A DNA stretch of 64,000 nucleotides from Escherichia phage phiWec179, in the sequence record LC739533.1, one strand, 5' to 3'. Each line of letters begins with the position of its first letter. The stretch's first letter is position 1. The position numbers and the translations under genes were made by a program. The notes beneath the pieces were generated by a model, which made no database searches, was not told the DNA's origin, and saw nothing but the letters and a program-made list of their open reading frames with translations. This document shows, one piece after another, positions 7,764 through 40,745 of this stretch.

Positions 7764-7798
7764 AGACGTATTATCTCTTGTCTAATACGTCTTGTCAA
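7764..7798 (-). promoter_or_regulatory. Promoter (TTGACA-N17-GATAAT) embedded in a 10-bp inverted repeat
   Basis: Minus strand: -35 (7793-7798), -10 (7770-7775). Perfect inverted repeat AGACGTATTA (7764-7773) / TAATACGTCT (7783-7792) spans the -10 box. Confidence 0.5.
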
Positions 7799-7806
7799 TA
7801 CTTGTT

Positions 7807-20954: not shown

Positions 20955-22769
20955 ATGCATAATTTATATCAGGACGTATTTTCTTTTTTGGATAAAACTT
21001 GTGACACATATACACGAGAGAACGCAAACAAACCCTCTCACCTCGTTAACACACATAGGGACTTACTGGCGGGGATTTTAAGTAAGCACATGGCAATGAC
21101 TCAGATATTACCAAAGAACCTCGCAGAATGGCATACAGAAGGTTTTGGACATATCCATGATCTTGATTATCTGTTGTCTCCTCTTACGAATTGTTGTCTG
21201 GTAAACTACCAAGATATGCTGGAGAATGGCTTTAAAATCGGTGCTGCATATATTGAGAAACCTAAGTCCATTGGTGTAGCCACCACAGTGTTGACGCAAA
21301 TCATCCAGGCTGTTGCTTCAAGCCAGTATGGGGGACAAACTTGTGCTCATATTGATCAGGGGTTAAGTCAGTATGTTGAAGCTACCTACCTTAAGAATTT
21401 GAGAGAAACAGAACTACGTTACGGATACCCAGCCTGTAACGAAGCTTTAGCAGCAACAGATAAGGCTGTATATGATGCTATGCAGACATTGCTGTACCAG
21501 GTGAATACACTGATGAGCGTCAATGGACAATCTCCTTTCATCACTATCAGTATGGGATTAGATACAACAGTTTTTGGGAGAATGATCACTAAGAACTATC
21601 TTAAGGTACACAGTGAAGGGTTAGGGAAAGATCATGTCACACCTGTGTTCCCTAAAGTTGTGTTCTTCCTGGAGGAAGGTGTTAACATGGCAACTGAAGA
21701 TCCTAATTACGATCTGAAAAAACAAGCTTTAGAGTGTTGTGCAGATCGAATCTATCCTGACTTCATTTCTGTGCCTCTTAACAAGGAAGTGACAGGCTCT
21801 ACGAAAGGAAATGTTACCAGTATGGGGTGCCGTTCGTTCCTGTCTTACTACACTACAGAACAGGGAGAGAAGTATGATGGACGTTTTAATTTAGGAGTTG
21901 TGTCAATAAACTTACCATTAATTGCAGCTAAAGCAAAAACAGAAGGATATTGTTTCTCTGACCTACTTGATGAACATATGCGTCTGGCTTACGATGCTCA
22001 TATGCTTCGGGTGGAACGCCTACGTCATACACGCGCATCAGAGAACCCTATCCTGTTTATGGAAGGGGCTTTAGCACGTCTCAATGCTGACGATGAGATT
22101 GGAGTTTTGTTTGAGGGTGGGTATGCTTCAATCAGTATTGGGTATGTAGGATTGTCCGAAGCTTTGGAGATCTTATACTCTGAAGAAGCGGATAAGAAAG
22201 AGATGGGCAAAGCTATTCTGCAATACATGAAAGACACTTGTGCAGAGTTTAAAGAGTTGTCTAATCTGCCTTTCAGTTTGTATGGCACTCCTGCGGAATC
22301 CTTGTGCTACAAGTTTGCCACAGCTTTAAATAAAAATTATCCTAATCTGCATGTACGGGATTACCTGACCAACTCGTTCCATCAACCTGTTTGGGAGGTT
22401 ACAAATCCTTTTGAGAAGTGGGACTACGAAACAGGTTTTGCTCAAATCAGTAATGGCGGGAATATTAGTTATGTAGAAACTCCCAACCTGAAGAACAACT
22501 TGGAAGCTTTAGAAGCTTTGGTCGATTATGCTTATGAGCGCATCCATTACTTTGGCATCAATCAACCAGTGGATCAATGTTTCAAATGCAACTTTCATGG
22601 GGAGTTTAAAGCTACAGCAAAAGGTTTTGAATGCCCTTCGTGCGGGAATAATGAAGAAGAAACTATCTCCGTTATTCGTCGTGTTTCCGGTTATCTGTCT
22701 GCCCCTAACTCGCGCCCTTACAACAAAGGGAAAATGCAGGAAGTGTTACAAAGGGAGAAACATCTTTGA
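20955..22769 (+). CDS. nrdD: Anaerobic ribonucleoside-triphosphate reductase (class III RNR)
   Basis: C-terminal glycyl-radical motif RRVSGYL; zinc ribbon CFKCNFHGE...CPSCGN; 604 aa. Confidence 0.85.
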   Translation: MHNLYQDVFSFLDKTCDTYTRENANKPSHLVNTHRDLLAGILSKHMAMTQILPKNLAEWHTEGFGHIHDLDYLLSPLTNCCLVNYQDMLENGFKIGAAYIEKPKSIGVATTVLTQIIQAVASSQYGGQTCAHIDQGLSQYVEATYLKNLRETELRYGYPACNEALAATDKAVYDAMQTLLYQVNTLMSVNGQSPFITISMGLDTTVFGRMITKNYLKVHSEGLGKDHVTPVFPKVVFFLEEGVNMATEDPNYDLKKQALECCADRIYPDFISVPLNKEVTGSTKGNVTSMGCRSFLSYYTTEQGEKYDGRFNLGVVSINLPLIAAKAKTEGYCFSDLLDEHMRLAYDAHMLRVERLRHTRASENPILFMEGALARLNADDEIGVLFEGGYASISIGYVGLSEALEILYSEEADKKEMGKAILQYMKDTCAEFKELSNLPFSLYGTPAESLCYKFATALNKNYPNLHVRDYLTNSFHQPVWEVTNPFEKWDYETGFAQISNGGNISYVETPNLKNNLEALEALVDYAYERIHYFGINQPVDQCFKCNFHGEFKATAKGFECPSCGNNEEETISVIRRVSGYLSAPNSRPYNKGKMQEVLQREKHL

Positions 22770-24057: not shown

Positions 24058-24714
24058 ATGACTATTAAACATATCTCTTTTGATGTATGGAACACACTGA
24101 TCACAGCAAACCCCAATTACGCAGATATGCGAGCGTGGACTATCGCAAAATACGGGGATATTACGGAAGTAGAAGCAAGAGCAGCTTACAAGAAGATCAA
24201 AAAGGAACTGGACAATGCCGCACTTCAGGGAACAGCCGAGTGTGCAGCATATGCCTGGGAAAGACTTGGTTACGAACTTGGGATAACACCTTTGAAGTCT
24301 GCAAAGCTTCGTTTCGAGTGTGAACAGTGGTTCCTTAAGTTTCCACCGCATGTGGCTGTGGATTTACCGATGCACTTGCTGTATCTTTCGGGGCGTTATG
24401 ATTTGAGCATCAAGAGTAATACCAACTTCATATCAGGAGATATCTTGCGACGTGCCTGTAAGTTTGAAGGTTGGAATTGTTTTGAGTTCACACATTTCTC
24501 GGATGAAGCTTTACTTTGTAAACCAGATCCGCGATTCTTTGCTCGCACGATCACTTATTCTCCAATCCCTCTGGTAGGGCAGGAAGTGTTGCACGTAGGT
24601 GATAGTGAAGAATATGATGGAAAATGTGTTGACGTAGGATTTAACTTCTGTCATATTAAGAACCCTAACGACTTGTTAGATAAACTTGCTAAAGGAGAAC
24701 TTGTTAATGCGTAA
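24058..24714 (+). CDS. HAD-superfamily hydrolase-like protein
   Basis: Motif I-like ISFDVWNTLI (second Asp replaced), motif II SIKSNTN, motif III CKPDP, motif IV VGDSEEYD. Confidence 0.5.
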   Translation: MTIKHISFDVWNTLITANPNYADMRAWTIAKYGDITEVEARAAYKKIKKELDNAALQGTAECAAYAWERLGYELGITPLKSAKLRFECEQWFLKFPPHVAVDLPMHLLYLSGRYDLSIKSNTNFISGDILRRACKFEGWNCFEFTHFSDEALLCKPDPRFFARTITYSPIPLVGQEVLHVGDSEEYDGKCVDVGFNFCHIKNPNDLLDKLAKGELVNA

Positions 24715-25534
24715 TCAAACTCAAATCTTTGCTCACAAATTCGATAGTCTGGAAACTGCTCGCTTTGATATTCGTGACTATTCCAAACTGAAGTTTGGCA
24801 GCAACCAGGCGGCTCGCCGTATGGGGCGAACGCTGGCAGTCTCTTTCTATGACTTGGTAGTCAAGAATATGCCGGAAGAAGAATTTGTGGTGATTCCTTC
24901 ACCTTACAACCATGTGCATAACGCAGCAACCATGATGACCAATCAGTTCATCAACTTCCTGAACCTGTTGCTGTTGAATCACAAGGGTAGCCGTGCAGTA
25001 GAATTGGATACGATCCACCGCAAGGTGAGTTACATTAACGATTATGGTTTCCTGGACAAAGCGAGCCGTAAGAAACTGATTGATGGTGACACCTTCTATT
25101 GCAACAAAGATTTTTGGGGCAACAAGAAGCTGATCTTCATTGATGATGTGAACATCACGGGAACTCATGAAGACAAACTGATTGAGATCCTGGATGAAAA
25201 TAAAGTTACGAATGATGTTTACTTCCTGTATTTTGCGAAGTATACTGGTAATCAAGCAGACACAGAGGCTAAACTGAACTTCAACCATATTAACACGACA
25301 GATGCTTTTGTTAAGATGATCAATGAAGAATGTGATGCGCAGTGTCTTGTTCGTCCTATCAAGTATTTGATGGGACAAACACCGGAAGAGTTTAAAATCA
25401 TTCTTTCCCGTTTGCCGCACCAATACGTAGAAGCACTGTTCTTTGGGTGTCTTGGGGAAGGTTATGATAAGATCGAGAAGTATTCTGAAAACTTCGTCTT
25501 CCTGAACCGTTACTTTAACCAGCATATCCTGTAA
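24707..25534 (+). CDS. Type I phosphoribosyltransferase (PRTase) domain protein
   Basis: PRPP-binding loop KLIFIDDVNITGTHED. Start at MRNQTQ after AAAGGAG RBS. Confidence 0.65.
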   Translation: MRNQTQIFAHKFDSLETARFDIRDYSKLKFGSNQAARRMGRTLAVSFYDLVVKNMPEEEFVVIPSPYNHVHNAATMMTNQFINFLNLLLLNHKGSRAVELDTIHRKVSYINDYGFLDKASRKKLIDGDTFYCNKDFWGNKKLIFIDDVNITGTHEDKLIEILDENKVTNDVYFLYFAKYTGNQADTEAKLNFNHINTTDAFVKMINEECDAQCLVRPIKYLMGQTPEEFKIILSRLPHQYVEALFFGCLGEGYDKIEKYSENFVFLNRYFNQHIL

Positions 25535-25543
25535 GGAGGGAAA

Positions 25544-26026
25544 ATGTTGAAGGTTGTTACTGGGAATCTGATCGATGCCGCCAAGAATGGGAAAGTGAAC
25601 GTTATAGCCCACTGTTGTAACTGTATGTGTAATATGGGTGCAGGGATTGCTCCGCAAATTAAACGAGCATTTCCTTATGCATATGCAGCCGACTTGGATA
25701 CAGCGGCAGGTGATCAAAGCAAACTGGGTTCTTTTAGTTTAGGGGTGCCGGAGGAAGTGTCTGACCCACTGGTTTATAACCTGTACGGACAGTACCGTTA
25801 CGGGTATAACGGTAAAGGTCGTCAGTTGGACTATGATGCCCTGTACGATGCTCTTGAGGCTATGGCAAAGGATCTCCACAAATGGGTGAACACATCTGCC
25901 AAACATAAGATTGGTCTACCTATGATCGGAGCAGGGTTGGCAGGAGGTAATTGGGCTATCATTGAAGTGATGATTGAAGAAACTTTAGTAAAAACAGGTC
26001 ACGATGTGACTATTTATAAACTTTAA
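25544..26026 (+). CDS. Macro domain protein, TARG1/OARD1-like (ADP-ribose binding or hydrolysing)
   Basis: VNVIAHCCNCMCNMGAGIAPQIKRAFP and C-terminal LPMIGAGLAGGNWAIIEVMIEE...VTIYKL, close to recalled OARD1 motifs. Confidence 0.7.
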   Translation: MLKVVTGNLIDAAKNGKVNVIAHCCNCMCNMGAGIAPQIKRAFPYAYAADLDTAAGDQSKLGSFSLGVPEEVSDPLVYNLYGQYRYGYNGKGRQLDYDALYDALEAMAKDLHKWVNTSAKHKIGLPMIGAGLAGGNWAIIEVMIEETLVKTGHDVTIYKL

Positions 26027-26039
26027 GAGGAGAAATAAT

Positions 26040-26261
26040 ATGGGTGTTGTTGCAGGTGTTCTGGCAGTAGTTATCGTGTTTGTTCTGGCTTTCCTGATTA
26101 GTATGATTCCAGCATGGCTTCTGCTGCTGGCTTATAACTACGTTGTTGAAATGATGGGTCACACAGATATCACTGTTCCTATCACCTTCTGGACTGTGGT
26201 GTGTGTGGCATTTATCATGGCTGTACTACGTGGGATCTTTTCCTCAAGTTCTTCAAAATAA
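26040..26261 (+). CDS. Small membrane protein (73 aa)
   Basis: Two hydrophobic helices. Confidence 0.5.
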   Translation: MGVVAGVLAVVIVFVLAFLISMIPAWLLLLAYNYVVEMMGHTDITVPITFWTVVCVAFIMAVLRGIFSSSSSK

Positions 26262-26264
26262 GTG

Positions 26265-26323
26265 TTGACAAGGTTTTAGAATAGAGTAAGATGTATCACA
26301 TGAGGCGGGGAGTGGTTCCCCGC
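26265..26323 (+). promoter_or_regulatory. Conserved early promoter (TTGACA-N16-TAAGAT) with 5' leader hairpin, plus-strand copy upstream of terC
   Basis: -35 (26265-26270), -10 (26287-26292), then GTATCACATGAGGCGG and hairpin GCGGGGA/TCCCCGC (26305-26323). Confidence 0.6.
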
Positions 26324-26342
26324 AAAGAGAAAGGAGAAAATA

Positions 26343-27317
26343 ATGCAACTTGGTTTTCCAATCATTGATGTAGTGGTGTTGGTAGGTATTCTTGTTCTGT
26401 CGATCTGTGTTGACTTTTTTGGTCATCGTGAAAACAAGGAGATCTCTTTCAAATCCGCTGTGGCTTGGTCAGTATTCTGGATTGGTGTGTCTTTAGCCTA
26501 CTACGGTTTTGTATACTTCCAGCACGGCGCAGCTTTTGCAAACTTATTCTTGAGTGGATATGTGTTAGAGAAGTCGCTCTCGGTAGATAACTTGGTAGTG
26601 TTTGTAGCAGTGTTCTCCAGTTTCGGGATTAAGAGCACACACTTACAACACAAAATTCTACTCTGGGGTATTGCAGGTGCGATTGTCTTCCGAGGTGTGT
26701 TTGTAGCAGCAGGGACTTATCTGCTAAGTTTGGGTTGGTTTGTTAATATCATCTTCGGTGCTGTTATCCTGTTCTGTGCTTTTAAAATGGTAATGGCTGG
26801 CGGTGATGATGAAGAAGTGGATTACTCTAAACATTGGGCGACACGCTTTGTACGTAAACTATTCCCAGTATCGGATCAGATGGATGGCGAGAAGTTCTTC
26901 ACAATTAAGAATGGTGTTCGTGTAGCAACTCCGGCTCTGGTTTGTGTGTTCGTGATGGAAATGGTGGATGTGATCTTTGCAGTAGACTCGGTTCCGGCTG
27001 TAATTGCAGTGACACAAGAACCACTGCTTGTATTCTCTTCGATGCTCTGTGCAATCTTAGGCTTACGTGCTCTGTTCTTTGTTCTTAGTGTGGCCCTGAA
27101 GTATCTGGTTCACCTGGAAAAAGCAGTTATCGCAGTCCTGGTGTTTGTTGGTGTGAAACTGATGTATCACCCGTTTGCAGAAACGCTGCACGCAAAAGTG
27201 AGCTTCCTGCCAGCGCATATTGACCCGACGATCAGCATGTATATCGTGCTTGGTACTCTGACCCTGGGCGTGATTGCAAGTTTCATCTTCCCTGAAAAAG
27301 AAGAAGCTACCGCTTAA
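26343..27317 (+). CDS. terC: TerC-family integral membrane protein
   Basis: Signature segments EKSLSVDNLVVF and AVDSVPAVIAVTQEPLLVFSSMLCAILGLRALFF; multiple transmembrane helices. Confidence 0.85.
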   Translation: MQLGFPIIDVVVLVGILVLSICVDFFGHRENKEISFKSAVAWSVFWIGVSLAYYGFVYFQHGAAFANLFLSGYVLEKSLSVDNLVVFVAVFSSFGIKSTHLQHKILLWGIAGAIVFRGVFVAAGTYLLSLGWFVNIIFGAVILFCAFKMVMAGGDDEEVDYSKHWATRFVRKLFPVSDQMDGEKFFTIKNGVRVATPALVCVFVMEMVDVIFAVDSVPAVIAVTQEPLLVFSSMLCAILGLRALFFVLSVALKYLVHLEKAVIAVLVFVGVKLMYHPFAETLHAKVSFLPAHIDPTISMYIVLGTLTLGVIASFIFPEKEEATA

Positions 27318-27325
27318 TACCAATG

Positions 27326-27347
27326 AACCTCCTTCGGGAGGTTTCTT
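27326..27347 (+). terminator. Rho-independent terminator
   Basis: Stem AACCTCC / GGAGGTT with TTCG loop, followed by a T-rich tract. Confidence 0.65.
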
Positions 27348-27365
27348 ACTAACATAGGAGGAATT

Positions 27366-27716
27366 ATGTCTGTATATTTTGACGATGTTCAGGAATATGT
27401 TTGGTGTCTTTCTGGCACAATCTCGGAAGTAGAAGCTGCGATTCAAGAGGTTTTTCCTTACGCTTATGTAGAAGTTAAACAGGCACCTCCTATGGATCTT
27501 CCCCCTAATGTGGAAGCTTGTTGTGGTTCCGGCGAGGGTACAGTCATCCCAGTTCTGCGTTACGAACTACAAGCAGCAAGTGCAAATGTCGATGATATTA
27601 TTACAGAAATTAAGGCGTATGGTTTCTGGACCTCTCCTTACGCTAAATGGGATAACTCTGACACTTGGGATTTATTCTTCTGGGATAATGAGACAGATGA
27701 CGAGGTATTTCTGTAA
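27366..27716 (+). CDS. Hypothetical acidic protein (116 aa)
   Basis: Intact ORF with AGGAGG RBS. Confidence 0.55.
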   Translation: MSVYFDDVQEYVWCLSGTISEVEAAIQEVFPYAYVEVKQAPPMDLPPNVEACCGSGEGTVIPVLRYELQAASANVDDIITEIKAYGFWTSPYAKWDNSDTWDLFFWDNETDDEVFL

Positions 27717-27958
27717 TGAAAGTTGTTTGGGTTGTGTTTGAAAATATTTGTTTTGCAATAGGTTTGTTCGTCATACTTTTTGTGTTGACAAACGTGATCA
27801 ATGGTAGTAAAGTATCCCTATACAAAGACGGGGAGCAGATTTACTGCTTCTCTGGAGATTTCAAACACACCTGTGTTAATATGCAGAAAGAAGAAACTCC
27901 ACACCAGAAGTCAAGAGAAGATTTTGATTGGTGGTCACTACTTAATAACTTAAGATGA
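27716..27958 (+). CDS. Small membrane protein (80 aa)
   Basis: N-terminal transmembrane helix VVWVVFENICFAIGLFVILFVL. Confidence 0.5.
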   Translation: MKVVWVVFENICFAIGLFVILFVLTNVINGSKVSLYKDGEQIYCFSGDFKHTCVNMQKEETPHQKSREDFDWWSLLNNLR

Positions 27959-27967
27959 GGAGAAAAT

Positions 27968-28837
27968 ATGAAAAATATTCAGCCATTACCTGTAGTTGGG
28001 GATTTGTATTTCTTATCTGGTACGGGTTATTCCCCAGAAGCATTAGAAGTTAACAAGAACGTCTTCCGAGTGAAAGAAATAAGAGAAGAATGTAATGAAA
28101 TTGTTTTCGAAGGTATTACTAATGGAGTTCTTCAGTATGCAGAGATGCGTAGCTGCTTCCAGCAACCTTTCCGCCCGTTGGCAGACGAGTATAAGATTGC
28201 GGTAAATATTGATGATCTTAAAAAAGAACCAGGGTTCGAAGCGTTCTCTACTTTTATGGAAGATACGTATGTGGATGTAAAGAGATCTAACCTTTTCGCG
28301 GGGGATAATTTCCCTCACTTTGTGTCAGAGAAAAGTGATGGTTTTTCCGACTACGTGGATGCTGTAAACTATGATGTTTCTGAATTGACAGGAGAGCAGG
28401 ATTATCTTCTGCTGTCTCCTAAAGATTTCATGCGCGTAATGTATGCCGTAGCCGAACAGAAAAAGAAGAAAGAAAAGCTTGTAGCCAAAAAAGTTAAAAA
28501 GGTTAAAGGTAAACGTGCCAAAGGTGTTCCAGAACGTAAGCGCACCGTAAATAAGGCGACAGTCTTCTTTACCAGCGGTGAGCAATATACGATCAAAGGT
28601 TTTAAAGAAGTGGGTTACACTGCTGGCGGAAACCTTCTGTTCTTCACAGTTGCAGAAGAAGGAGAAACTTTTATCCGTTTTTCCAATATGTGGGAAATGT
28701 CTGTAGAAGATATTAAAAGTGTTGTTGTTTTAGGTGTACATAAGAGTTTCATTATTAATCAAATCTCTGATTTCAGTGCACACTTGACAGCACCAGATTT
28801 CGAAACTACCACAACAAGCTTTAACTTCAAGGTGTAA
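27968..28837 (+). CDS. Hypothetical protein with central Lys-rich segment (289 aa)
   Basis: Intact ORF with GAGGAG RBS; KKKKEKLVAKKVKKVKGKRAK stretch. Confidence 0.6.
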   Translation: MKNIQPLPVVGDLYFLSGTGYSPEALEVNKNVFRVKEIREECNEIVFEGITNGVLQYAEMRSCFQQPFRPLADEYKIAVNIDDLKKEPGFEAFSTFMEDTYVDVKRSNLFAGDNFPHFVSEKSDGFSDYVDAVNYDVSELTGEQDYLLLSPKDFMRVMYAVAEQKKKKEKLVAKKVKKVKGKRAKGVPERKRTVNKATVFFTSGEQYTIKGFKEVGYTAGGNLLFFTVAEEGETFIRFSNMWEMSVEDIKSVVVLGVHKSFIINQISDFSAHLTAPDFETTTTSFNFKV

Positions 28838-28840
28838 TGC

Positions 28841-29431
28841 ATGAATACCGAGAGAGATTTAAAACTCTTGTGGTGGGAAGTGATGCAGGAGATCAAGGAG
28901 GATTTCCCTGTTTACTACAACATGCTACGTGAAGCTGGATATACGGCTTGCGTTAGGAACAAAGTGAATAACTCTTTCGGTTGGTGCAACTACCGAGAAA
29001 AGATTGTTGTTGTGAATTGGCACTTGCATAAAAACTCCACAAGGGATATGATAGTGGACACAATGAAGCATGAGATTGCTCATGCGATCGACGGTTGTAT
29101 GGGTAAGTTCAGTCGTCATGGACCACACTGGCAAAAGCTGGCAGCAGAGTTGGGAGCCAATCCTAAAGCTACTTCCAAAGAACCGTTAAACCATGAGTAC
29201 AAATATGTTCTTGTTTTGGTGGACAGATTTGCCACAAGATGTGTTAGAGGGTATAATCGTAAACCTAACCGTATGACTCCAGGGAAACAACCACATATTT
29301 GGTTGAAGAGTGATAAAGAGGGGACAGAAGGAAAAATATGGTTGTATAAATGGGAAGATTGGGTTAAAGTAGCTAAAGAATATGGTGTTTCACCTTACAC
29401 AAGAGAAATAGAAGAGGAGAATGAAGAATGA
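28841..29431 (+). CDS. SprT-like zinc metalloprotease domain protein
   Basis: HExxH motif MKHEIAHAI followed by HGPHW. Confidence 0.5.
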   Translation: MNTERDLKLLWWEVMQEIKEDFPVYYNMLREAGYTACVRNKVNNSFGWCNYREKIVVVNWHLHKNSTRDMIVDTMKHEIAHAIDGCMGKFSRHGPHWQKLAAELGANPKATSKEPLNHEYKYVLVLVDRFATRCVRGYNRKPNRMTPGKQPHIWLKSDKEGTEGKIWLYKWEDWVKVAKEYGVSPYTREIEEENEE

Positions 29432-30540
29432 CAAGTCCATTTTTGAAAGCGGCAACTGGTGGTCAAAAGAAATCTGAAACGAGTGTACTGACTGCTACTA
29501 CAGATGCAAGCAAGTCCGTGTTCGCTCCGAGTGTCCTGGATGCAAGTCCAGTGTATGCTCCAGCAGCGCCAAAAGCTGTGCCTACCTTGCCAACAATGTC
29601 TCGTAAAGAGATTGAAGAAGTGGGTGCAGAAGCAGGTTTAACTCTCCGCACGCTGAATGCCGAAGTGTTAAAGCACCAACGTAGCAATCAAGGCGATGAA
29701 ATGAGCCAACGCCTTACCGCGCTGATTAAACAAGCCAAACAGCTTGATCCTGCTTCTATCAAGCAGAGCAAAGGTGTAGGCAAACTTATCAAGAAACTGA
29801 TGGGTATGAAGGAAGATCTGTTCGGGGAATTCGATAATGTGAACAACCGTATCGAAGAACTCGTTAAGAATCTTCAGATGGATATTCGTAAAGAAGAAGA
29901 TTCTCTGGTGTACCTGGAGAAGCTGCACCAGGCGATCGGACAGTACGCCGCAAGCCTGAATCGTGATATGGAATTACTCACAGCAGCTTATGAGCAAGAA
30001 CTGGCTAACTTTGAAGCTACGCCAGAAGATGACGTAGAAGCCCGTCAACGCGTCCGTGACACGCTTGATCTTCTGGAGATACGTATTGCTGACTTGAAGG
30101 CATTACGCTTGCTGTGCGTGCAAATGGGTCCGCGTGTATTGGGTATGCAGAAAGTATCTGCCAGCCTCATGCGTTCTGCTCGTAATATTGTGAACAATGT
30201 GATTCCTGCTTACTCGGCAAACTTCTCGATGTATATTGAAAGTCTGCGCCAGAAGAAAGCAGCAGAAACACAGAACAACGTTCTGGACGAGTTCAACCTG
30301 GCAATCAAACTGGGTAGCGATCTTGCCACACAGAACCAGATCGAAGCAGCAGCACTGGCTAACCGCCAAGTGTTGGATATCGAAACTCTGCGTCACGATC
30401 AGGAGAACTTGGTTAAGATGTTGGAAGAAACTAACCGCATCAATACGGAAGCCCGTGCTGCCCGTGTTGATTACATCAATGAAGTTCAATCTCTCGAAGA
30501 TGGGATGGTTGACGCTGTTAAGAAGGGGTTGGGTAAATGA
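29428..30540 (+). CDS. TelA-like (toxic anion resistance family) coiled-coil protein
   Basis: 370-aa largely helical protein adjacent to TerC and TerD; family call is from recalled profile and context. Confidence 0.45.
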   Translation: MTSPFLKAATGGQKKSETSVLTATTDASKSVFAPSVLDASPVYAPAAPKAVPTLPTMSRKEIEEVGAEAGLTLRTLNAEVLKHQRSNQGDEMSQRLTALIKQAKQLDPASIKQSKGVGKLIKKLMGMKEDLFGEFDNVNNRIEELVKNLQMDIRKEEDSLVYLEKLHQAIGQYAASLNRDMELLTAAYEQELANFEATPEDDVEARQRVRDTLDLLEIRIADLKALRLLCVQMGPRVLGMQKVSASLMRSARNIVNNVIPAYSANFSMYIESLRQKKAAETQNNVLDEFNLAIKLGSDLATQNQIEAAALANRQVLDIETLRHDQENLVKMLEETNRINTEARAARVDYINEVQSLEDGMVDAVKKGLGK

Positions 30541-30743
30541 GAATCCGTGTATACATGCTTGACGAACAAGCTGGAGAAATAGGTGTTCGTTATGATGAAG
30601 AGAAACGCTTTGCCCCAATGACCCAGCTACAAACTCCAGATATTTTTGCAGCTTGTCGTGACGGATATATCTATGAAGGTTGTCGCAACTTTGGCAGATT
30701 TAAAGTTATTTCTGATGTGGAATTTAACGAGGAGGAAGAATGA
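30537..30743 (+). CDS. Hypothetical protein (68 aa)
   Basis: 4-nt overlap coupling. Confidence 0.5.
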   Translation: MRIRVYMLDEQAGEIGVRYDEEKRFAPMTQLQTPDIFAACRDGYIYEGCRNFGRFKVISDVEFNEEEE

Positions 30744-30910
30744 AAACATTGCGTGTGAACATCGAAACTACCTGGCGAGATTTCGAGGTTGTTGATATTG
30801 AGATTGAAGACGATATGTCTCAAGAAGATATCGAAGATCTTGCAAAAGAAACATTTCAGGACTATTGTAATTACGGGTTCCATATTTTAGGGGAGGAAGA
30901 AGATGTTTAA
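30740..30910 (+). CDS. Small acidic hypothetical protein (56 aa)
   Basis: ATG overlaps the upstream stop and the stop overlaps the next ATG; not in the ORF track. Confidence 0.4.
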   Translation: MKTLRVNIETTWRDFEVVDIEIEDDMSQEDIEDLAKETFQDYCNYGFHILGEEEDV

Positions 30911-31301
30911 ACACACAAACGTAAACTTGAAATTAACAGTAACAGATCCGACTCTTTTCATCAATCTTACAAGCGGGGAAGTTTATGAAGTTATCACAGA
31001 CGAGGATGGTTCTTGCTTCCTTAAAGGTTATTATCTCTGTGAATCTGATGAGTTGGTATCTATTATCACCTTGGGAGAATACGAAGAACCAGGCTTCCGT
31101 GTGGAGGTTGTTAAGAATCCCGATATTATCCAGTTGACTCGCCAAGAACTGATCACAATCATGGAAGACGCTTTTATTGATGGATGGAAGACTCAAAACT
31201 ATGATTGGAGTGGCCCAGAAGACTTCCTGCGTCTTCATAAAGAGTATGACGATTCCAGCGAAACTACTATTGCCATTGATAGTATTAAGGCTGGTGTGTA
31301 A
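30903..31301 (+). CDS. Hypothetical protein (132 aa)
   Basis: Intact ORF with GGAGG RBS. Confidence 0.6.
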   Translation: MFKHTNVNLKLTVTDPTLFINLTSGEVYEVITDEDGSCFLKGYYLCESDELVSIITLGEYEEPGFRVEVVKNPDIIQLTRQELITIMEDAFIDGWKTQNYDWSGPEDFLRLHKEYDDSSETTIAIDSIKAGV

Positions 31302-31370
31302 TGAAAAGTGTTGACAACAATCTCCATAAGATGGATAATACCTCCATCGAAAAAACGGGAGGAGATAAGA

Positions 31371-31643
31371 ATGTTTGATTTTAAAATAAAGGATTCAAAA
31401 CCCCAAGATGTAGCAGTTCGTTTCGAAGAGTTGGGGATTGGTGAAACTTTCATGTATTATTCAGCATATGAAGAAAATGGTTTGGATACATTTGCAAACT
31501 TAGTATTCCTTAAAAGCGGCGGCGCGACTGCTGTTTGTTTGAATAGTTCATCAAGAGGGAGTGTCCATACCGTATCCCCAGATGTGCCGATGGTTGCAGT
31601 TCGTTTAGTAGTTACTGATATTACACTTACAGAGGAGAAATAA
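31371..31643 (+). CDS. Hypothetical protein (90 aa), cassette paralog A
   Basis: MFDFKIKDSKPQ...SAYEENGLD; paralog of 32665..32946. Start after GGGAGGAG RBS. Confidence 0.55.
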   Translation: MFDFKIKDSKPQDVAVRFEELGIGETFMYYSAYEENGLDTFANLVFLKSGGATAVCLNSSSRGSVHTVSPDVPMVAVRLVVTDITLTEEK

Positions 31644-31644
31644 T

Positions 31645-32445
31645 ATGTCCAATAAAATTAGCCTGAAGAAACGCCAAGACACCCTGACCATTTCACTGAA
31701 GAAAAAGAAAATTGTCAACGAAGATCAAAAGATCGTTCTGCGTGTTGCAAGCGCACTGGATATCTCCGGCAGCATGTCCAGCCTGTATCGTAACGGTACT
31801 GTAAGTGAGTTTGTTGGTAAGCTGCTTCCGTTTGGTATGCTGTTCGATGATAACGCGCAGATCGATATGTGGGCTTTCAACAATAGCTCTCGTGAAATCA
31901 CTCCAGCAACTGCTGATGTGTATGATGATTACGTTGGTAAATGCATTAATGGTCGTGTAACAGTCCAGGGTGGCACAAGCTATGCACCTGTTATGCAGGA
32001 TATTTACGATTCCTACTTCGGTAGCACCACTAAATATGAAACTGTAGAAACCCCTGTAACCAAAGAAGTTCCTAAGAAAGGTTTCTTCAACCGTTTACTG
32101 GGTAAAACCGAAACTGTAGAAGCTATTGTAGAAAAAACTGTAGCCGTTGCTGTGCCTGGTGTAGACGTTACTCCGGCAGTTGTGTTCTTCCAGACAGATG
32201 GAGAGAACGATGATCCGAGCCGTGTACTCTCCGTACTGGAAAAGAACAAGGGTAAACCTATTTACTGGTTCATGGTGGGTGTTGGTAGTGCTCGTTTCTC
32301 TTTCCTGAAAGATTTGGCTGAAGCTTACGACAACGTAGCATTCATTGGTCTGAACGATCTTTCCTTGACAGACGAGCAGCTTTACGATAAACTCTTGTCT
32401 GAAGAGTTCGGTGAGTGGGTTGAAAAGGTTGGTGCTAAGAAATGA
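31645..32445 (+). CDS. von Willebrand factor A (vWA) domain protein, TerY-like
   Basis: MIDAS motif DISGSMS, downstream GGTSYAP and VVFFQTDGENDD. N-terminus ISLKK...ISLKK resembles the TerD N-terminus. Confidence 0.7.
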   Translation: MSNKISLKKRQDTLTISLKKKKIVNEDQKIVLRVASALDISGSMSSLYRNGTVSEFVGKLLPFGMLFDDNAQIDMWAFNNSSREITPATADVYDDYVGKCINGRVTVQGGTSYAPVMQDIYDSYFGSTTKYETVETPVTKEVPKKGFFNRLLGKTETVEAIVEKTVAVAVPGVDVTPAVVFFQTDGENDDPSRVLSVLEKNKGKPIYWFMVGVGSARFSFLKDLAEAYDNVAFIGLNDLSLTDEQLYDKLLSEEFGEWVEKVGAKK

Positions 32446-32684
32446 TCGACACGCTGATCTCTCAAACGGTGTTGCAAGTGATGCGTGAGAGAGAAGCTTT
32501 CATCATGAAGGGTCTTAAAGATTATTTTGGGACTCTTTCTTTGGAAGAACTCAAACTACGCGTTGAGATCCATGCGTATCCTTCTTATGAAGAATGGATT
32601 GACAAAGCAAATAAAGCTGTTATAATGCGTATCAACAAACCAGAAATCACGACAGGAGGACAAGATGTTAAATTTCGCCATTAA
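32442..32684 (+). CDS. Hypothetical protein (80 aa)
   Basis: 4-nt overlap coupling. Confidence 0.5.
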   Translation: MIDTLISQTVLQVMREREAFIMKGLKDYFGTLSLEELKLRVEIHAYPSYEEWIDKANKAVIMRINKPEITTGGQDVKFRH

Positions 32685-32946
32685 GAAAGATAGCAAACCA
32701 AAGATTCAGACTTGTCGCATTGCAAATCTTACACATGGTGATTTGTTTGTTCTGAAAAGTGCCTACGACGAAGACGGTCTTGATCCAGAAGCAGTCGTCG
32801 TTTATATGGTGTTGCGGCGAGATGAAGACACCAAGCACCCATACAATGCGGTAGAGATGAATTACAATGCAATGTTGTGCTCAATACACTATACGGCAGA
32901 GTTGGTGCAGGTAGAGTTAACAGTTAACGAAATTAAACTTAAATAA
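32665..32946 (+). CDS. Hypothetical protein (93 aa), cassette paralog B
   Basis: MLNFAIKKDSKP...SAYDEDGLD; paralog of 31371..31643; AGGAGG RBS. Confidence 0.55.
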   Translation: MLNFAIKKDSKPKIQTCRIANLTHGDLFVLKSAYDEDGLDPEAVVVYMVLRRDEDTKHPYNAVEMNYNAMLCSIHYTAELVQVELTVNEIKLK

Positions 32947-32961
32947 TAGAGGAGACACATA

Positions 32962-33564
32962 ATGAGCGATAAAATTTCCCTGAAAAAAGGTTCCACCGAG
33001 AAGATTTCCCTGAAGAAAGTTGCTCCGGCACTGAAAGAACTGCGTCTGGAGTTCTCCTGGAAATCAAACTCTAAACTGGATCTGGATGTAAGCGCACTTG
33101 TATGCCGACACAACGCCTCTGGCAACCCTGAAATGCTGTCTGCACGTCATCTGGTTTGTTATGCTAACAAGTTTGATCCAGAACGTTCTGTATTCGCAGG
33201 TGATGATGTTCGTGACGGTACTGGTCAAATGGAACAAATCGATGTAACCTTGGCTAAGATCTCCGATAAAGCCGAAGAGATTGCTTTTGTCCTAACTATT
33301 GATGATGAAACGGGTCAGAAACGTCTGGGTCACGCTACTGAAGGTATGCTGAAGATCTTTGATGCCGAGCGTAACGTTGAGATCCTGGACTTCGACTTCT
33401 TGGCTCCTGAAGTGGCTGGTAATACCATCTGCCACGTAGCTTCCCTGGTTCGTGAAGACGGTGAATGGAAACTGAAAGCTTACGGTGTTGGTAAAGCAGG
33501 TATGGATATCTGTGATGTGGTTATGGCCTTCGGTGGTCAGAAAGAATGGTACGATTGCCCGTAA
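32962..33564 (+). CDS. terD: TerD-domain protein
   Basis: Aligns along its length with recalled TerD: ISLKKGSTEKISLKK, DLDVSAL, GDDVRDGTGQMEQIDV, IAFVLTIDDE, EDGEWKLKAYGVG. Confidence 0.8.
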   Translation: MSDKISLKKGSTEKISLKKVAPALKELRLEFSWKSNSKLDLDVSALVCRHNASGNPEMLSARHLVCYANKFDPERSVFAGDDVRDGTGQMEQIDVTLAKISDKAEEIAFVLTIDDETGQKRLGHATEGMLKIFDAERNVEILDFDFLAPEVAGNTICHVASLVREDGEWKLKAYGVGKAGMDICDVVMAFGGQKEWYDCP

Positions 33565-34880: not shown

Positions 34881-35444
34881 ATGATTTATTATATTACCCC
34901 CTATCTAAGTGGAGATATCGGCAAAGCAATTAACGATGCTATTGCCGTTCTTCACGAAGATAGTTGGGTCTGTTTACGTGATATCGATACCATGTTCTTA
35001 CTGCCAGACCAACCTTCTATGTTGGAAGATTTGGTAGCAACCAATCCACCGTTTGATGTGATCGGTGCGTCTTGTAATCGTTTAGGTAGTGGTTATCAAC
35101 TTCTCGGTGGAAAGATTGATGATGATCCTAACATTCTGAACCATATTTCTCATGCCAAAGTTGCTCGTGATTACTATGGTGATGAAATTGAAGAAGTCCC
35201 ACAAGGCACTCCCTTAGCAGGTTTCTTTCTATTGTTCAGGAAATCATTATGGAAGGAGATCCCTTTTGAAGAACGTACCATCCAGTTCGATATAATCTTC
35301 TCAAACACTTTACATGAACGAGGAAAAAGGTTAGGATTGATGCGTGGGATGTATCTCTTCCATATTTACCGTTTAGGTCAAAAAGATCCTCAACGGGCAA
35401 TATCACACCTTATGCATTGTCATGATCACCGGAAAACTATTTAG
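34881..35444 (+). CDS. Putative glycosyltransferase-like protein
   Basis: DxD-like LRDIDTMF; call rests mainly on position at the head of the glycosyltransferase block. Confidence 0.35.
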   Translation: MIYYITPYLSGDIGKAINDAIAVLHEDSWVCLRDIDTMFLLPDQPSMLEDLVATNPPFDVIGASCNRLGSGYQLLGGKIDDDPNILNHISHAKVARDYYGDEIEEVPQGTPLAGFFLLFRKSLWKEIPFEERTIQFDIIFSNTLHERGKRLGLMRGMYLFHIYRLGQKDPQRAISHLMHCHDHRKTI

Positions 35445-35452
35445 GGGGAAAG

Positions 35453-36136
35453 ATGGAAAATATTAAAATTGGGGTTGGCGTTATCACTGTAGGTGTTCGT
35501 CCACTTAAAGATTACATGGTTGCACCTGGTGTAGACTTCAAAGTGTTTCACGATCCCGATCGTAAAGGTGTAGCTTATGCTCGCAACCAATTAATGAAAC
35601 AGTTCTACGATGAAGGTTTTGACTACTGGTTCATTTTTGACGATGATTGCTATCCGGTTAAACGTGGCTGGGAAGAATACTTCGTTAACCAGGCTGTCGA
35701 GAATGGTTGGGACTTCTTCGGTATGCCAGAATACTTCAAAGATACTGTGATAGGTTGTTCTGGAGAAGTAGTCTTCTGGGAATTGGCTATGTGTCAGTTT
35801 GCAATGTATTCTCGTGCAACTGTTGAGACGATGGGTTATTTCCGTCCTTATACACACGGATATGGTTTCGAAGATGCAGAATGGACTAATCGTCTGAAAG
35901 CTTCAGGTTTGAATAAAGGACTCCAGGGCGTACCTTGTCCGATGCGCATTATGGCGTACATTCACCCCGACGATGTTTTCGGTGATAACCCTTTACCTTT
36001 TGCTAATCTGACAAAAGAAGAGAAAGAATCAGCAATCGGGATCAATTGGGAAGAATACAAACTGTCTTTGGAGGATATTAATAATGGCAAAACACACATC
36101 TCTTTTGAAGAGGCTGAAGGATATGGCGTTAAATAA
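35453..36136 (+). CDS. GT-A fold glycosyltransferase
   Basis: DYWFIFDDDCYP (DxD) and GYGFEDAEW segments typical of GT-A enzymes. Confidence 0.6.
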   Translation: MENIKIGVGVITVGVRPLKDYMVAPGVDFKVFHDPDRKGVAYARNQLMKQFYDEGFDYWFIFDDDCYPVKRGWEEYFVNQAVENGWDFFGMPEYFKDTVIGCSGEVVFWELAMCQFAMYSRATVETMGYFRPYTHGYGFEDAEWTNRLKASGLNKGLQGVPCPMRIMAYIHPDDVFGDNPLPFANLTKEEKESAIGINWEEYKLSLEDINNGKTHISFEEAEGYGVK

Positions 36137-37070
36137 GAAACCAACCCTACTGTGTGACAACAAATTCAACAGTGGTTGTGATTACCATCGCATTGTCATG
36201 CCATTTTCTAACACAGAGATCAAGCCACGTACTGATGTACTGGTCTTTAACCGCATCTTCTCGAAGGGTGCTGATGAAGTAGCCAAACTTAAGCGCCAAG
36301 GTGTTAAGATTGTTGTAGATTTGGATGATTTCTATCAATTGAATCCAGAACACTACCTGGCGCATCTGTACGCGCCAAACACCCGCACAATCGTGGAAAT
36401 GGTTAAAATAGCAGATATTGTCATTGTCACAACCGAATACCTGGCGTACAAAGTTCGTCACTTAAACTCTAACGTTGTTGTGATCCGAAATGCTCTACCG
36501 TTTGATGATGGTCAATTCACTCTCTCGAATGATCGTACTTCGGGTACGCCTATCATTTGGGCTGGAGGTGCGAGTCATGAACCGGATTTACGTTTGCTTT
36601 CAAACACTTTTGATGATAGTTTATTGTCTATCGCAGGGTATGAAGCGAGCAGCACAGTGACAGGGCAAGAGTGGGTTAAGATCCGCCGTAGTTTGCCTAA
36701 TGCGCAGTATAAACCTGCTGTAGATTCTTTGAATCATTATATGTCTGCATACGATGGTCATGCTATGGCTGTAGCTCCGTTAGTAGATAACGACTTCAAC
36801 CATTGCAAGAGCAACCTGAAAGTATTAGAAGCTGGTGCTAAAGGCATTCCAATCGTTTGTTCTAAGGTATTACCTTACTACAACCCGATCGATGCCCGTG
36901 CAGTAACCTTCGCAGATAGCAAAGCAGAGTGGCACTATGAAGTTGTAAAACTACTTCGTAATCCAAACTACCGCGAAGATCGTGGACTGTTCTTGGCTGA
37001 ACATGTTCGTACTCACTACAACTTGAAGGATGCAAACGAATTGCGTCGTCAAGTGATCGAAAGTCTGTAG
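36084..37070 (+). CDS. GT-B fold glycosyltransferase, paralog 1
   Basis: C-terminal KSNLKVLEAGAKGIPIVCS nucleotide-sugar binding motif; paralog of 37071..38021. Start has GGAGGA RBS but overlaps the upstream gene by 53 nt. Confidence 0.6.
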   Translation: MAKHTSLLKRLKDMALNKKPTLLCDNKFNSGCDYHRIVMPFSNTEIKPRTDVLVFNRIFSKGADEVAKLKRQGVKIVVDLDDFYQLNPEHYLAHLYAPNTRTIVEMVKIADIVIVTTEYLAYKVRHLNSNVVVIRNALPFDDGQFTLSNDRTSGTPIIWAGGASHEPDLRLLSNTFDDSLLSIAGYEASSTVTGQEWVKIRRSLPNAQYKPAVDSLNHYMSAYDGHAMAVAPLVDNDFNHCKSNLKVLEAGAKGIPIVCSKVLPYYNPIDARAVTFADSKAEWHYEVVKLLRNPNYREDRGLFLAEHVRTHYNLKDANELRRQVIESL

Positions 37071-38021
37071 GTGTTTATGGGACAAATTATTCTTGACAAT
37101 CGTGGTGGAAAAGAATATAGTGTCTGTGATTATCACCGAGTAATGCTGCCTTACACAAGGCAGTTCTCGGCCCAACCGTCACAGAACGTATATGTCTTTA
37201 ACGGTGTCCCTACGAAAGGGAAACAAGGCTTCATAGCCCTTAAGAGCATGGGCTTTAAGATGGTAATGGATTTGGATGACTCTTTAAACATTCCCCAAGG
37301 CCATATGCTGGAAGACATTTTTGATGCAGGTATTCGAGAAGACTTGCAATGGTTCCTCGAACGCAGTGATCTTGTAACGACAACAACCCCTGCTCTCCAG
37401 GTGGAATTGTCCCAGTACAATCCTAACGTGCATATTATCCCAAATGGTTTACCGTTTGACGAGGATCAGTTTACGTTAACTCGTGATCGCTACTCCAAGT
37501 CCCCTGTAGTTTGGGCTGGAAGTGAAACACACAAGCAAGACCTGGCTCTACTACCGAACTTCGGGAGTGACTTAACGATTTGCGGATTCCGCAGAGATAG
37601 TGAAGTGTTAAGTAGTCAGCAATGGACCGATATACGTGAAAAGGTGGCTCCAAGCTGCAAATATGAGGCTGTTAGACCATATGAGAGCTATATGGAATCT
37701 TACGACGGTCATCAGATAATGCTTGCACCTCTAACAGATAACATGTTTAATAACGCTAAGAGTAACCTGAAGATTCTGGAAGCAGGTGCCAAGGGTTTAC
37801 CTTTAGTGTGTTCTCCCCGTGAAAACTACTTCACCGAAGAGTTTAAAGATTTGTTGTTCTTTGCAGAAACAAAAAGCGAGTGGGAAGATATTGTTAATTA
37901 CCTGATCCAGTGTCCTGATGTGGGTATTGAAAAGGGATTAGCTTTAGCTAAGTATGTTCGTAAGCATTACCATATTGATGTGCTGAATGAACGCCGTAGA
38001 TTATTATTTGAGGAGTTATAA
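37071..38021 (+). CDS. GT-B fold glycosyltransferase, paralog 2
   Basis: KSNLKILEAGAKGLPLVCS; shares CDYHR(I/V)(V/M)(M/L)P and other blocks with the previous gene. Start codon GTG 37071 or ATG 37077. Confidence 0.6.
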   Translation: MFMGQIILDNRGGKEYSVCDYHRVMLPYTRQFSAQPSQNVYVFNGVPTKGKQGFIALKSMGFKMVMDLDDSLNIPQGHMLEDIFDAGIREDLQWFLERSDLVTTTTPALQVELSQYNPNVHIIPNGLPFDEDQFTLTRDRYSKSPVVWAGSETHKQDLALLPNFGSDLTICGFRRDSEVLSSQQWTDIREKVAPSCKYEAVRPYESYMESYDGHQIMLAPLTDNMFNNAKSNLKILEAGAKGLPLVCSPRENYFTEEFKDLLFFAETKSEWEDIVNYLIQCPDVGIEKGLALAKYVRKHYHIDVLNERRRLLFEEL

Positions 38022-38299
38022 TGCTGAATACTTTTGATTTTGAATACACTACGAAAAGTGGTTTTAATGTTGTGGTGGAGGTTGACTATTACTACGAAGA
38101 GCCTGATCCACACTCACGGGAAAGTGATTGGGATTACCACGGCGGGTTACTGATCGACGGTATCCGTTTCTATGCGGGTCTGGAACAGATTAATGCGGAA
38201 GACATTAACGTCACCGTAACAGAAATCGCATACCAATTCAAAAAACATATGGAGGCATTAGAAGCCGAGTACATGATGGAAACTAACGAATCATTTTAA
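38021..38299 (+). CDS. Hypothetical acidic protein (92 aa)
   Basis: ATG overlaps the upstream stop. Confidence 0.5.
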   Translation: MLNTFDFEYTTKSGFNVVVEVDYYYEEPDPHSRESDWDYHGGLLIDGIRFYAGLEQINAEDINVTVTEIAYQFKKHMEALEAEYMMETNESF

Positions 38300-38314
38300 C
38301 AGGAGAGGATGACC

Positions 38315-38953
38315 ATGAGGTTAGTACAAGGTTGGGGGATTAATGATATAGGTAGTATCCCTAAAACAGGTTTTATCCGAGTAGCTTACAGGTGTTGGTC
38401 AAGAGTTTTAGAAAGATCTCACAGTAAAGCTTGGAAGAATAAGTATCCTACATACAAGGATGTAACATGTTGCGAAGACTGGAAATATTTTTCAGTATTC
38501 ATGGACTGGATGGAGACACAACCTTGGGAAGGAAACGATTTGGATAAGGATTTGTTAGGAGATGGTAGCTTATACTCCCCTCAAACTTGTGTTTTTATAC
38601 CTCCTGAAATAAATAAAGCTTTAGCTGCAAATAAAAAACAAGGAGAATTCTTATCTGGAGTCTGGTTTCAAACAAAGTCTAAAACTATGGTTAATAGTTT
38701 AAAACGTCCTTGGGCTGTTAAAGCCCATAGACAGGGTAGTAAAAAACCTGTATATTTAGGAAACTATTATTCAGAACAAGAAGCCCATAATGTGTGGTTG
38801 ACTACACGCGCAGAGGATATGTTATGGTGGTGCGACCAATGGGAAAACAACGAGAAGTATAATAAATCTTGGAAACCTGTGTTTAAAGAAGCTTTTAATA
38901 AGAAAGCTGAAGCTTATAGAGGGAGGATAAAAAATGTCATACATTGTCACTAA
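38315..38953 (+). CDS. AP2-domain homing-endonuclease-like protein, paralog A
   Basis: N-terminal W..RC...Y..V.C.DW..F..F..W and LDKDLLGDGSLYSPQTC segment; C-terminal AP2-like VYLGNYYSEQEAHNVW. No catalytic His seen in the HNH-like segment. Confidence 0.5.
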   Translation: MRLVQGWGINDIGSIPKTGFIRVAYRCWSRVLERSHSKAWKNKYPTYKDVTCCEDWKYFSVFMDWMETQPWEGNDLDKDLLGDGSLYSPQTCVFIPPEINKALAANKKQGEFLSGVWFQTKSKTMVNSLKRPWAVKAHRQGSKKPVYLGNYYSEQEAHNVWLTTRAEDMLWWCDQWENNEKYNKSWKPVFKEAFNKKAEAYRGRIKNVIHCH

Positions 38954-40721: not shown

Positions 40722-40745
40722 AGGGGCGCAAGCCCCTCTTGACTT
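40722..40745 (+). terminator. Terminator-like hairpin (AGGGGC-GCAA-GCCCCT)
   Basis: After the primase-helicase stop; followed by CTTGACTTTTGATT. Confidence 0.45.

Follow-up and report, generated by a model that had tools for sequence, protein, structure and literature searches.

What is the acceptor of the glycosyltransferases encoded by four consecutive genes of Escherichia phage phiWec179? The genes, here named GT1 to GT4, occupy positions 34881–38021 of a 64,000-nucleotide stretch of the phage record LC739533.1 (the window). A preliminary description of the window offered three roles for them: glycosylation of modified DNA bases as a defence against restriction, glycosylation of virion proteins, and modification of host surface glycans. 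Positions 34881–38021 are 100% identical at the DNA level in phages phiWec181 and phiWec186, and genome-wide checks were carried out on the 154,550-bp record of phiWec181 (LC739534), whose positions minus 48118 give those of the window. The phages of this group belong to the Stephanstirmvirinae, and “Wecvirus” is a proposed genus (PMC12695924). The reading that we favour, with a probability of roughly 40%, is a soluble glycan-assembly cassette working on a non-DNA acceptor, which we infer to be, most plausibly, phage (virion) proteins.

All four genes are open reading frames (ORFs) on the + strand, consecutive as first described, with a corrected start for the last of them. The initial division into one weak glycosyltransferase, one GT-A enzyme and two GT-B paralogues is borne out by folds, motifs and paralogue identity. 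GT1 (34881–35444) is a small, acidic (isoelectric point (pI) 5.8), soluble GT-A-fold protein with a D34-x-D36 motif, and GT2 (35453–36136) is an acidic (pI 4.7), soluble GT-A enzyme with the pattern R44..D63DD65..E140D141. Fold comparison and motifs assign both to the GT-A type, with its single Rossmann-like fold and a DxD motif. For Pfam Glycos_transf_2, GT2 reaches 19.5 bits (cut-off 23.3) and GT1 gives no match, so that both assignments rest on fold, motifs and PHROG families. GT3 (36084–37070, pI 8.5) and GT4 (37077–38021, pI 5.1) share 41% identity over 303 residues (E=4e-76), both match phrog_7162, and both contain the string KSNLK(V/I)LEAGAKG(I/L)P(I/L)VCS quoted earlier for the pair. 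GT4 passes Pfam Glyco_trans_1_2 (26.7, cut-off 25), GT3 stays below it (20.8), and a Pseudomonas prophage GT-B orthologue passes Glyco_trans_1_4 (29.4 versus 27). The profile of the GT3/GT4 family weakly matches the family GT4 enzyme MshA (3c4q, E=0.01) and PglA, and the two proteins are classed as family GT4-like GT-B glycosyltransferases. Their N-terminal (acceptor) half is strongly conserved across hosts and received no family assignment from sequence.

None of the four proteins has a predicted transmembrane segment (Kyte-Doolittle hydropathy over 19 residues peaks at 0.64–1.42). The GT2 family is uniformly acidic (pI 4.7–5.3; the T4 beta-glucosyltransferase (beta-GT) has a pI of 9.05). GT2 reaches 18.5 against the gathering threshold of 27.5 of Pfam TAGT (E=0.002), and matches PHROG 842, the T-even beta-glucosyl-HMC alpha-glucosyltransferase (alpha-GT), with E=3e-7 over residues 18–80 only, which is the nucleotide-binding/DxD region common to GT-A enzymes. 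More specific assignments were not obtained: NCBIfam has no model for any of GT1–4, Pfam gives no match of the four to EarP or toxin-type glycosyltransferase families, sequence searches of the PDB (GT2, GT4 and three family profiles) returned nothing useful except the weak MshA/PglA match, and a Foldseek search of GT2 against BFVD recovered only generic viral GT-A proteins. In RefSeq, the phAPEC8 orthologues gp071–074 are already annotated as four glycosyltransferases, and the annotation of the BASEL phage Bas60 lists two “putative glycosyltransferases” and two “putative disaccharide synthases” (the GT-B proteins); the gene identities are therefore not new.

The strongest clue to the function of the block lies beyond the window. 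The same genome encodes a complete dTDP-L-rhamnose pathway, with RmlA, RmlC and RmlD above the NCBIfam equivalog cut-offs (465.7 versus 360.65, 246.1 versus 155.75 and 244 versus 224.05, respectively) and RmlB present as the annotated dTDP-glucose 4,6-dehydratase, split across the record ends. Of 50,697 phage records surveyed for co-occurrence, 131 contain an RmlC homologue (60% identity or more) and about 125–133 the GT block, in essentially the same Stephanstirmvirinae set; RmlC is also present in Bas60. In two more distant relatives (L010 and L048), a gene for an NDP-hexose 4,6-dehydratase lies inside the block, between GT1 and GT2. This circumstantial evidence, co-occurrence within the subfamily and the dehydratase within the block, leads us to infer that dTDP-L-rhamnose is a donor for at least one of GT1–4. 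A dedicated pathway also implies a high flux of the sugar. Olsen et al. had noticed the rhamnose pathway and guessed at rhamnosylation of hydroxymethylated nucleotides in these phages (PMC7552041).

Part of the block recurs as a conserved module in other phages. A scan of GTDB revealed GT-B homologues in Pseudomonas, Burkholderia, Trinickia, Luteibacter, Chitinophaga and other genomes, and phages carrying a GT2/GT-B pair are assigned to Pseudomonas, Burkholderia, Luteibacter, Chitinophaga and an Acetivibrio metagenome-assembled genome. In a Pseudomonas lambdoid prophage (L017), a GT2 homologue (45–47% identity) is found directly upstream of a GT-B gene (43% to GT3), the pair being located between the NinB/NinG region and the genes for a metallopeptidase, TerS, TerL and the portal; three further Pseudomonas loci (L016, L018 and L021) show the same order by tblastn. 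From 350 IMG/VR stretches encoding GT2 relatives, 80 loci were kept for a neighbourhood count, and 65 of them have a GT-B gene of the family next to the GT2 homologue and in the same orientation, on either side of it. An exhaustive HMMER search yielded 1,915 clusters (50% identity, E up to 0.001), among them natural GT2–GT-B fusion proteins (P0203 and P0209); other fusions bring in further GT2, GT4, methyltransferase (CmcI/rhamnosyl-O-methyltransferase-like) and sulfotransferase domains. Recurrent neighbours are a 218-aa DxD-like family, extra family GT2 GT-A proteins, FkbM-type methyltransferases (19 loci) and TylF-type sugar O-methyltransferases (4 loci); the terminase lies about 4 kb downstream. 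The order in a 34-kb contig (L105) is primase/helicase, 165-aa ORF, GT-B, GT-A, 232-aa ORF, FkbM methyltransferase, TylF O-methyltransferase, GT-A, 236-aa ORF, 125-aa ORF and TerL.

Single-copy homologues in other phages and prophages are 43–45% identical to GT3 and 37–39% to GT4, which marks GT4 as the diverged copy, and GT1 is found mainly in large-myovirus relatives. By these comparisons, GT1 and the second GT-B are classed as lineage-specific additions to the core pair. Where several entirely cytoplasmic glycosyltransferases form a self-contained set with NDP-sugar enzymes and sugar O-methyltransferases, they resemble an apparatus that builds a defined, capped oligosaccharide and not one that modifies bases. 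It is possible, though we put it forward with considerable doubt, that the GT2/GT-B pair supplies the catalytic core of an uncharacterised but widespread phage glycosylation system, which decorates particles or another conserved non-DNA target.

Regarding DNA as the acceptor, the genome was searched for enzymes that would provide a hydroxylated base. With T4 gp42, E. coli ThyA (an approximate sequence) and T4 beta-GT as phmmer queries, nothing was found in the six-frame ORFs of the 154,550-bp genome and of about 100 related loci. Among the approximately 35 larger proteins scanned with Pfam, none matched a TET/JBP oxygenase or a C5-methyltransferase, small unannotated ORFs not being exhaustively covered. 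The Pharokka annotation of the related “Pseudomonas” phage PsgM04F lists none of these enzymes, no ThyA-family enzyme is annotated in the stretch of phAPEC8 examined, and the lambdoid prophages with the GT pair have no base-modification gene in the stretches read. The absence of a base hydroxymethylase, noted before for the window, thus extends to the whole genome by the phmmer searches and by the annotation of relatives. The only thymidylate synthase is of the ThyX type (LC739534 148115–149104; L006 36116–37105; 329 aa). Pfam Thy1 covers only residues 21–173 and the NCBIfam ThyX score (28.7) is far below the cut-off of 87.9, features by which the protein is classed as a divergent, putative ThyX-like enzyme. 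A gene for an NT5C-like 5'-nucleotidase is found directly upstream of it.

Avoidance of restriction sites is a counter-restriction strategy of phages with nuclease-accessible DNA, and it is pronounced here. The tetranucleotide CTAG is absent from the 154,550 bp (255 expected; the result holds for the window and for the full genome LC739534), and GGCC occurs 68 times instead of the 218 expected. Thirteen of the 52 palindromic hexamers with at least eight expected occurrences are missing (CTGCAG, GGATCC, TCCGGA, CAGCTG, GGTACC, CGTACG, GCATGC, CACGTG, GGCGCC, AGCGCT, ACCGGT, GTCGAC and TCGCGA), compared with 10 of 3859 non-palindromic hexamers, several of which form reverse-complement pairs (GGTCTC/GAGACC and GACATC/GATGTC). 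The lost sites include those of PstI, BamHI, PvuII, KpnI, SphI and SalI; EcoRI (23), EcoRV (68) and HindIII sites are still present. PsgM04F shows the same avoidance pattern. In a 50-kb stretch of T4, whose DNA contains glucosylated hydroxymethylcytosine, there is no such purge, with 0 of 47 palindromes absent and 70 CTAG observed versus 100 expected. This genome-wide purge suggests that the phage counters restriction by a route other than DNA hypermodification. In addition, Bas60, a phi92-like phage, carries an orthologous four-gene block (69–74% amino-acid identity), and phi92-like phages have been described as “exceptionally susceptible” to restriction-modification systems (PMC8594841). Glycosylation of DNA is disfavoured by the undetected base-hydroxylating enzymes, the site purge unlike T4, the restriction-sensitive phi92-like phages and the prophage carriers without a base-modification gene in the stretches read, taken together. 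Among the three roles in the preliminary description, glycosylation of virion or other proteins and modification of host glycans remain as candidates.

In the explanation that we favour, GT1–4 would be soluble cytoplasmic glycosyltransferases that act jointly as a glycan-assembly cassette. Its core would be an ancient phage module of one family GT2-like GT-A (GT2) and one family GT4-like GT-B (GT3), to which a minimal GT-A (GT1) and, by duplication, a further GT-B (GT4) would have been added in this lineage. The dTDP-L-rhamnose made by the phage enzymes RmlA, RmlB, RmlC and RmlD would serve in one step or more, and host UDP-sugars presumably in the rest. If each enzyme adds one sugar, stepwise synthesis would yield a short oligosaccharide with rhamnose among its residues, of which there would be at most about four. 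Phage DNA would not be the acceptor; by analogy with the self-glycosylation of mycobacteriophages and giant viruses, the acceptor would most plausibly be Ser/Thr of abundant phage (virion) proteins. A protein acceptor is favoured since the cassette requires no lipid carrier, flippase or base hydroxylase, since its enzymes are soluble and acidic, and since a dedicated rhamnose pathway speaks for a high flux of the sugar; in prophages and small phages, moreover, the cassette adjoins genes for packaging and structure.

Two systems serve as models for this explanation. Virion O-glycosylation has been described in mycobacteriophages, with Che8 gp108–110 and Corndog gp38 (Freeman et al. 2023, summarised in PMC12363180). 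In those phages, several soluble phage glycosyltransferases are likewise encoded in a non-structural region, without DNA-modification genes, and a glycan on capsid or tail is proposed. Here, in contrast, the host is Gram-negative, the phage encodes a dTDP-rhamnose pathway, the capsid and tube lack Ser/Thr-rich C-terminal tails, and glycosylation is predicted from the genes. Giant viruses, such as chlorovirus PBCV-1 (A64R) and Mimivirus (R655/R699 and a rhamnose pathway), possess their own glycosylation machinery. There too, rhamnose nucleotide-sugar synthesis and several cytoplasmic GT-A enzymes are encoded by the virus, in that case decorating its own particle, whereas the eukaryotic viruses use a UDP-rhamnose route instead of the bacterial-type RmlABCD found here, and the likeness of the enzymes is at the level of the fold only (9–15% identity).

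Several observations weigh against the favoured explanation. The formation of a glycoprotein would follow from analogy. Che8 gp108–110 have no significant similarity to GT1–4 by hhalign, hmmsearch or tblastn. A direct link was considered from the tblastn matches of GT2 to about 500 mycobacteriophage glycosyltransferase genes (E 1e-4 to 8e-8), and was rejected since these are other genes than Che8 gp108–110; the mycobacteriophage system is therefore an analogy only. No Ser/Thr-rich C-terminal extension was found on the major capsid, decoration, tube or sheath proteins, the portal being the only structural protein inspected with a Ser/Thr/Gly-rich C-terminus. The weak similarity of GT2 to TAGT and PHROG 842, and the R..DDD..ED pattern that it shares with DNA-glycosylating GT-A enzymes, may point to DNA, and the block stands among replication genes, beside the primase/helicase, both here and in the contig L105. 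The conserved N-terminal half of the GT-B proteins argues for a conserved acceptor, for which a nucleic acid, nucleotide or lipid carrier would also qualify. Finally, the published restriction sensitivity concerns a sister genus, the phi92-like phages, and not a phiWec phage itself.

Three other acceptors have to be weighed against phage proteins. If the enzymes glycosylated or rhamnosylated a hydroxylated base, as in T-even, RB69 or 5mYOX-type systems, the DNA would be protected from nucleases. The neighbouring primase/helicase and PolA, the matches of GT2, the GT-B acceptor half conserved across hosts and the proposal of Olsen et al. speak for it. The T-even systems (T4 alpha-GT and beta-GT; T2/T6) are also found in lytic myoviruses, with their glycosyltransferases among genes of replication and nucleotide metabolism, and up to three glycosyltransferases build mono- to trisaccharides in T-even, RB69 and DLP3 phages, the DNA of the last two carrying arabinosyl-5hoC (PMC13326640). 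These systems need, however, a ThyA-family dCMP hydroxymethylase or 5hodCMP synthase, whose homologues went undetected genome-wide beside a ThyX-type synthase; similarity to T4 beta-GT is lacking as well, three of the four enzymes (GT1, GT2 and GT4) are strongly acidic, and the purged genome and the restriction-hypersensitive phi92-like relatives, with their orthologous block and Rml genes, differ from T-even phages. The glycosyltransferases associated with 5mYOX/TET enzymes resemble ours in mixing GT-A (R..DDD..ED) and GT-B proteins; they add diverse glycans and often lie near polymerase, helicase and terminase genes (bioRxiv 10.1101/2023.12.21.572611). In contrast to them, the TAGT match here is below threshold and the pair of C5-methyltransferase and 5mYOX was found neither among the larger proteins scanned nor in the annotation of relatives. 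About 65% of such glycosyltransferase contigs have no base-modification partner and are less likely to be DNA-modifying (bioRxiv 10.1101/2023.12.21.572611). With the lambdoid prophages that carry the pair and no base-modification gene in the stretches read, we consider a DNA acceptor very improbable.

The sugars could instead be transferred, during infection, to the host envelope, that is, rhamnose or others onto lipopolysaccharide (LPS) core, enterobacterial common antigen (ECA)/NGR or a lipid-linked intermediate, to mask receptors, exclude superinfection or prevent the re-adsorption of progeny. The location of the genes in the early/middle region, the mildly basic GT3, reminiscent of peripheral membrane GT-B enzymes, the PglA-type lipid-linked glycan glycosyltransferases among the nearest solved relatives of the GT-B profile and the use of LPS core and ECA/NGR as receptors by these phages all fit, and modification of the cell surface was proposed by those who described the ZCKP1 genome (PMC6141743). 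Phage-encoded glycosylation that changes a surface glycan is also known from Gtr serotype conversion of the O-antigen (BASEL 2025, PMC11990801), whereas GT1–4 have no transmembrane segment and the phage is virulent. The Gtr systems consist of membrane proteins of temperate phages (GtrA, GtrB and GtrC) that work in the periplasm with sugars carried on bactoprenol phosphate. GT1–4 lack membrane-spanning segments, the proteins scanned include no flippase, polymerase or polyprenol-phosphate glycosyltransferase, and the pair, with its conserved acceptor half, is shared across hosts whose envelopes differ, which weakens the envelope as a target. The prophage copies, moreover, lie in the late region just before the terminase and not as a lysogenic-conversion moron near att, and the acidity of GT1, GT2 and GT4 counts against this target too; we regard it as unlikely. 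A further candidate is a conserved target outside the virion structure, whose glycosylation would serve host take-over or counter-defence. It could be a cytoplasmic host or phage protein (as for bacterial glycosylating toxins and EarP), RNA, or a small molecule, for example a nucleotide-like metabolite or signal. Such a target would agree with the high conservation of the GT-B acceptor half across very different phages and hosts, the soluble, acidic enzymes, the early-gene neighbourhood with an upstream Ter-type module of PRTase, HAD and Macro domains, and the label “putative disaccharide synthase” given to the GT-B proteins by the BASEL annotators. Four glycosyltransferases, a four-gene rhamnose pathway and the O-methyltransferases of relatives, in contrast, indicate a bulk oligosaccharide and not a single-sugar switch. 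There is also no Pfam match to EarP or toxin-type families; the endolysin and small ORFs separate the Ter module from the block, and most contigs with the pair lack Ter genes. Such a target seems quite unlikely to us.

As to the organization of the locus, the four ORFs are flanked by small unknown genes 3' of the endolysin on one side and by the primase/helicase and PolA on the other, in agreement with the placement among replication genes reported initially. Shine-Dalgarno sequences precede GT1 (AAGGGG), GT2 (GGGGGA), GT3 (GGAGGA) and GT4 (AGGTG). The start of GT4 is most likely ATG 37077 and not GTG 37071 of the mechanically called ORF, because of the AGGTG upstream and because the homologues have 314 aa. 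For GT3, the most likely start is ATG 36084, preceded by the strong GGAGGA; GT3 and the end of GT2 then share an overlap of 53 nt (36084–36136), read in different frames. The same overlap is annotated in PsgM04F, and ORF-level overlaps are also seen in L011 and L014. The overlap, its presence in relatives and the strong Shine-Dalgarno sequence suggest that the GT-A/GT-B pair, elsewhere fused, is translationally coupled. A small, acidic ORF of 92 aa (38021–38299, + strand; phrog_4240) follows GT4 and may belong to the cassette; in the large-myovirus relatives, it always separates the final GT-B from the primase/helicase. Directly 3' of the primase/helicase, a hairpin resembling an intrinsic terminator (AGGGGCGCAAGCCCCT, 40722–40737, + strand) is followed by a T-rich tail, and the GT block and the primase/helicase may thus form one transcription unit that ends before PolA.

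Between the small ORF and the primase/helicase, and overlapping the start of the latter, there is an HNH endonuclease gene (38309–38953, + strand; phrog_953, E=1e-51). It is missing from this position in phAPEC8 and PsgM04F, where HNH/endonuclease genes are found elsewhere, and the inserted gene is probably a mobile homing endonuclease.

At the DNA level, the block is conserved in 54 phage records. Besides the phages with an identical copy, they include phiWec188, phiWec190 and PsgM04F, with 92–94% identity, and 49 records of the Phapecoctavirus type, with about 75%. Some of the related phages were deposited under other hosts (OR584014, Pseudomonas PsgM04F; MG065639/MG065650, Campylobacter A150/B15; OP562383, Acinetobacter ABPW7). 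Across the block they show 75–94% DNA or 73–81% protein identity to the coliphages, so that either these host attributions look doubtful or the phages look unusually polyvalent. In Klebsiella phage FKP3 (L012, PP895363; locus 6409–7948), which also belongs to the subfamily, the syntenic site contains only GT1 and a single GT-B, matched as three frameshifted pieces, possibly a pseudogene or a sequencing error, and a divergent GT2-like gene is located about 90 kb from the block, among early genes.

Upstream of the block, the window contains a Ter-type stress/defence-like module (24058–33564, + strand) that is conserved in relatives. It comprises, all on the + strand, genes for a HAD hydrolase (24058–24714), a ComF-like PRTase_3 protein (24686–25534), a Macro domain (25544–26026), TerC (26343–27317), a SprT-like protease (28841–29431), TelA (29428–30540), a vWA-TerF-like protein (31645–32445) and TerD (32962–33564). 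PRTase/HAD/Macro Ter modules of this kind were reportedly predicted by Anantharaman et al. in 2012 to make a nucleoside-like metabolite. A functional link between this module and the GT block was considered and set aside, and the two are treated as separate, since the GT pair occurs without the module in prophages and small phages. Also encoded in this long + strand array are an anaerobic ribonucleotide reductase, NrdD (20955–22769, + strand; E=8.5e-163), and a CapR-homology domain protein (10129–11082, + strand).

The genes of the block were thus already annotated in public records, and the puzzle of their function had been raised, and left unsolved, in the literature, where we found no experimental study of these genes in phAPEC8, phi92 or other Stephanstirmvirinae and only the remarks in PMC7552041 and PMC8594841. 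What is new here is the link to the Rml pathway, the widespread GT-A/GT-B core module and the sequence-based argument against a DNA target. A glycosyltransferase cluster beside replication genes is, by itself, no evidence of DNA hypermodification, and the conserved, sometimes fused GT-A/GT-B pair offers a concrete handle for the biochemistry of a large uncharacterised family of phage enzymes. If this pair is indeed the core of a phage glycosylation system, its product would be a defined oligosaccharide, rhamnose-containing in these coliphages, and the Stephanstirmvirinae would be, among E. coli phages, the first known case of self-glycosylation from a sugar nucleotide that the phage makes itself. 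Coliphages of this subfamily, phAPEC8 and phi92 among them, have a broad host range and are frequently put forward for therapy and biocontrol. A rhamnose-glycan coat on their particles, if present, could affect recognition and clearance by antibodies, adherence to mucus and surfaces, and particle stability. It would also bring virion glycosylation, of which descriptions are so far limited to actinobacteriophages and giant viruses, to the phages of Gram-negative bacteria.

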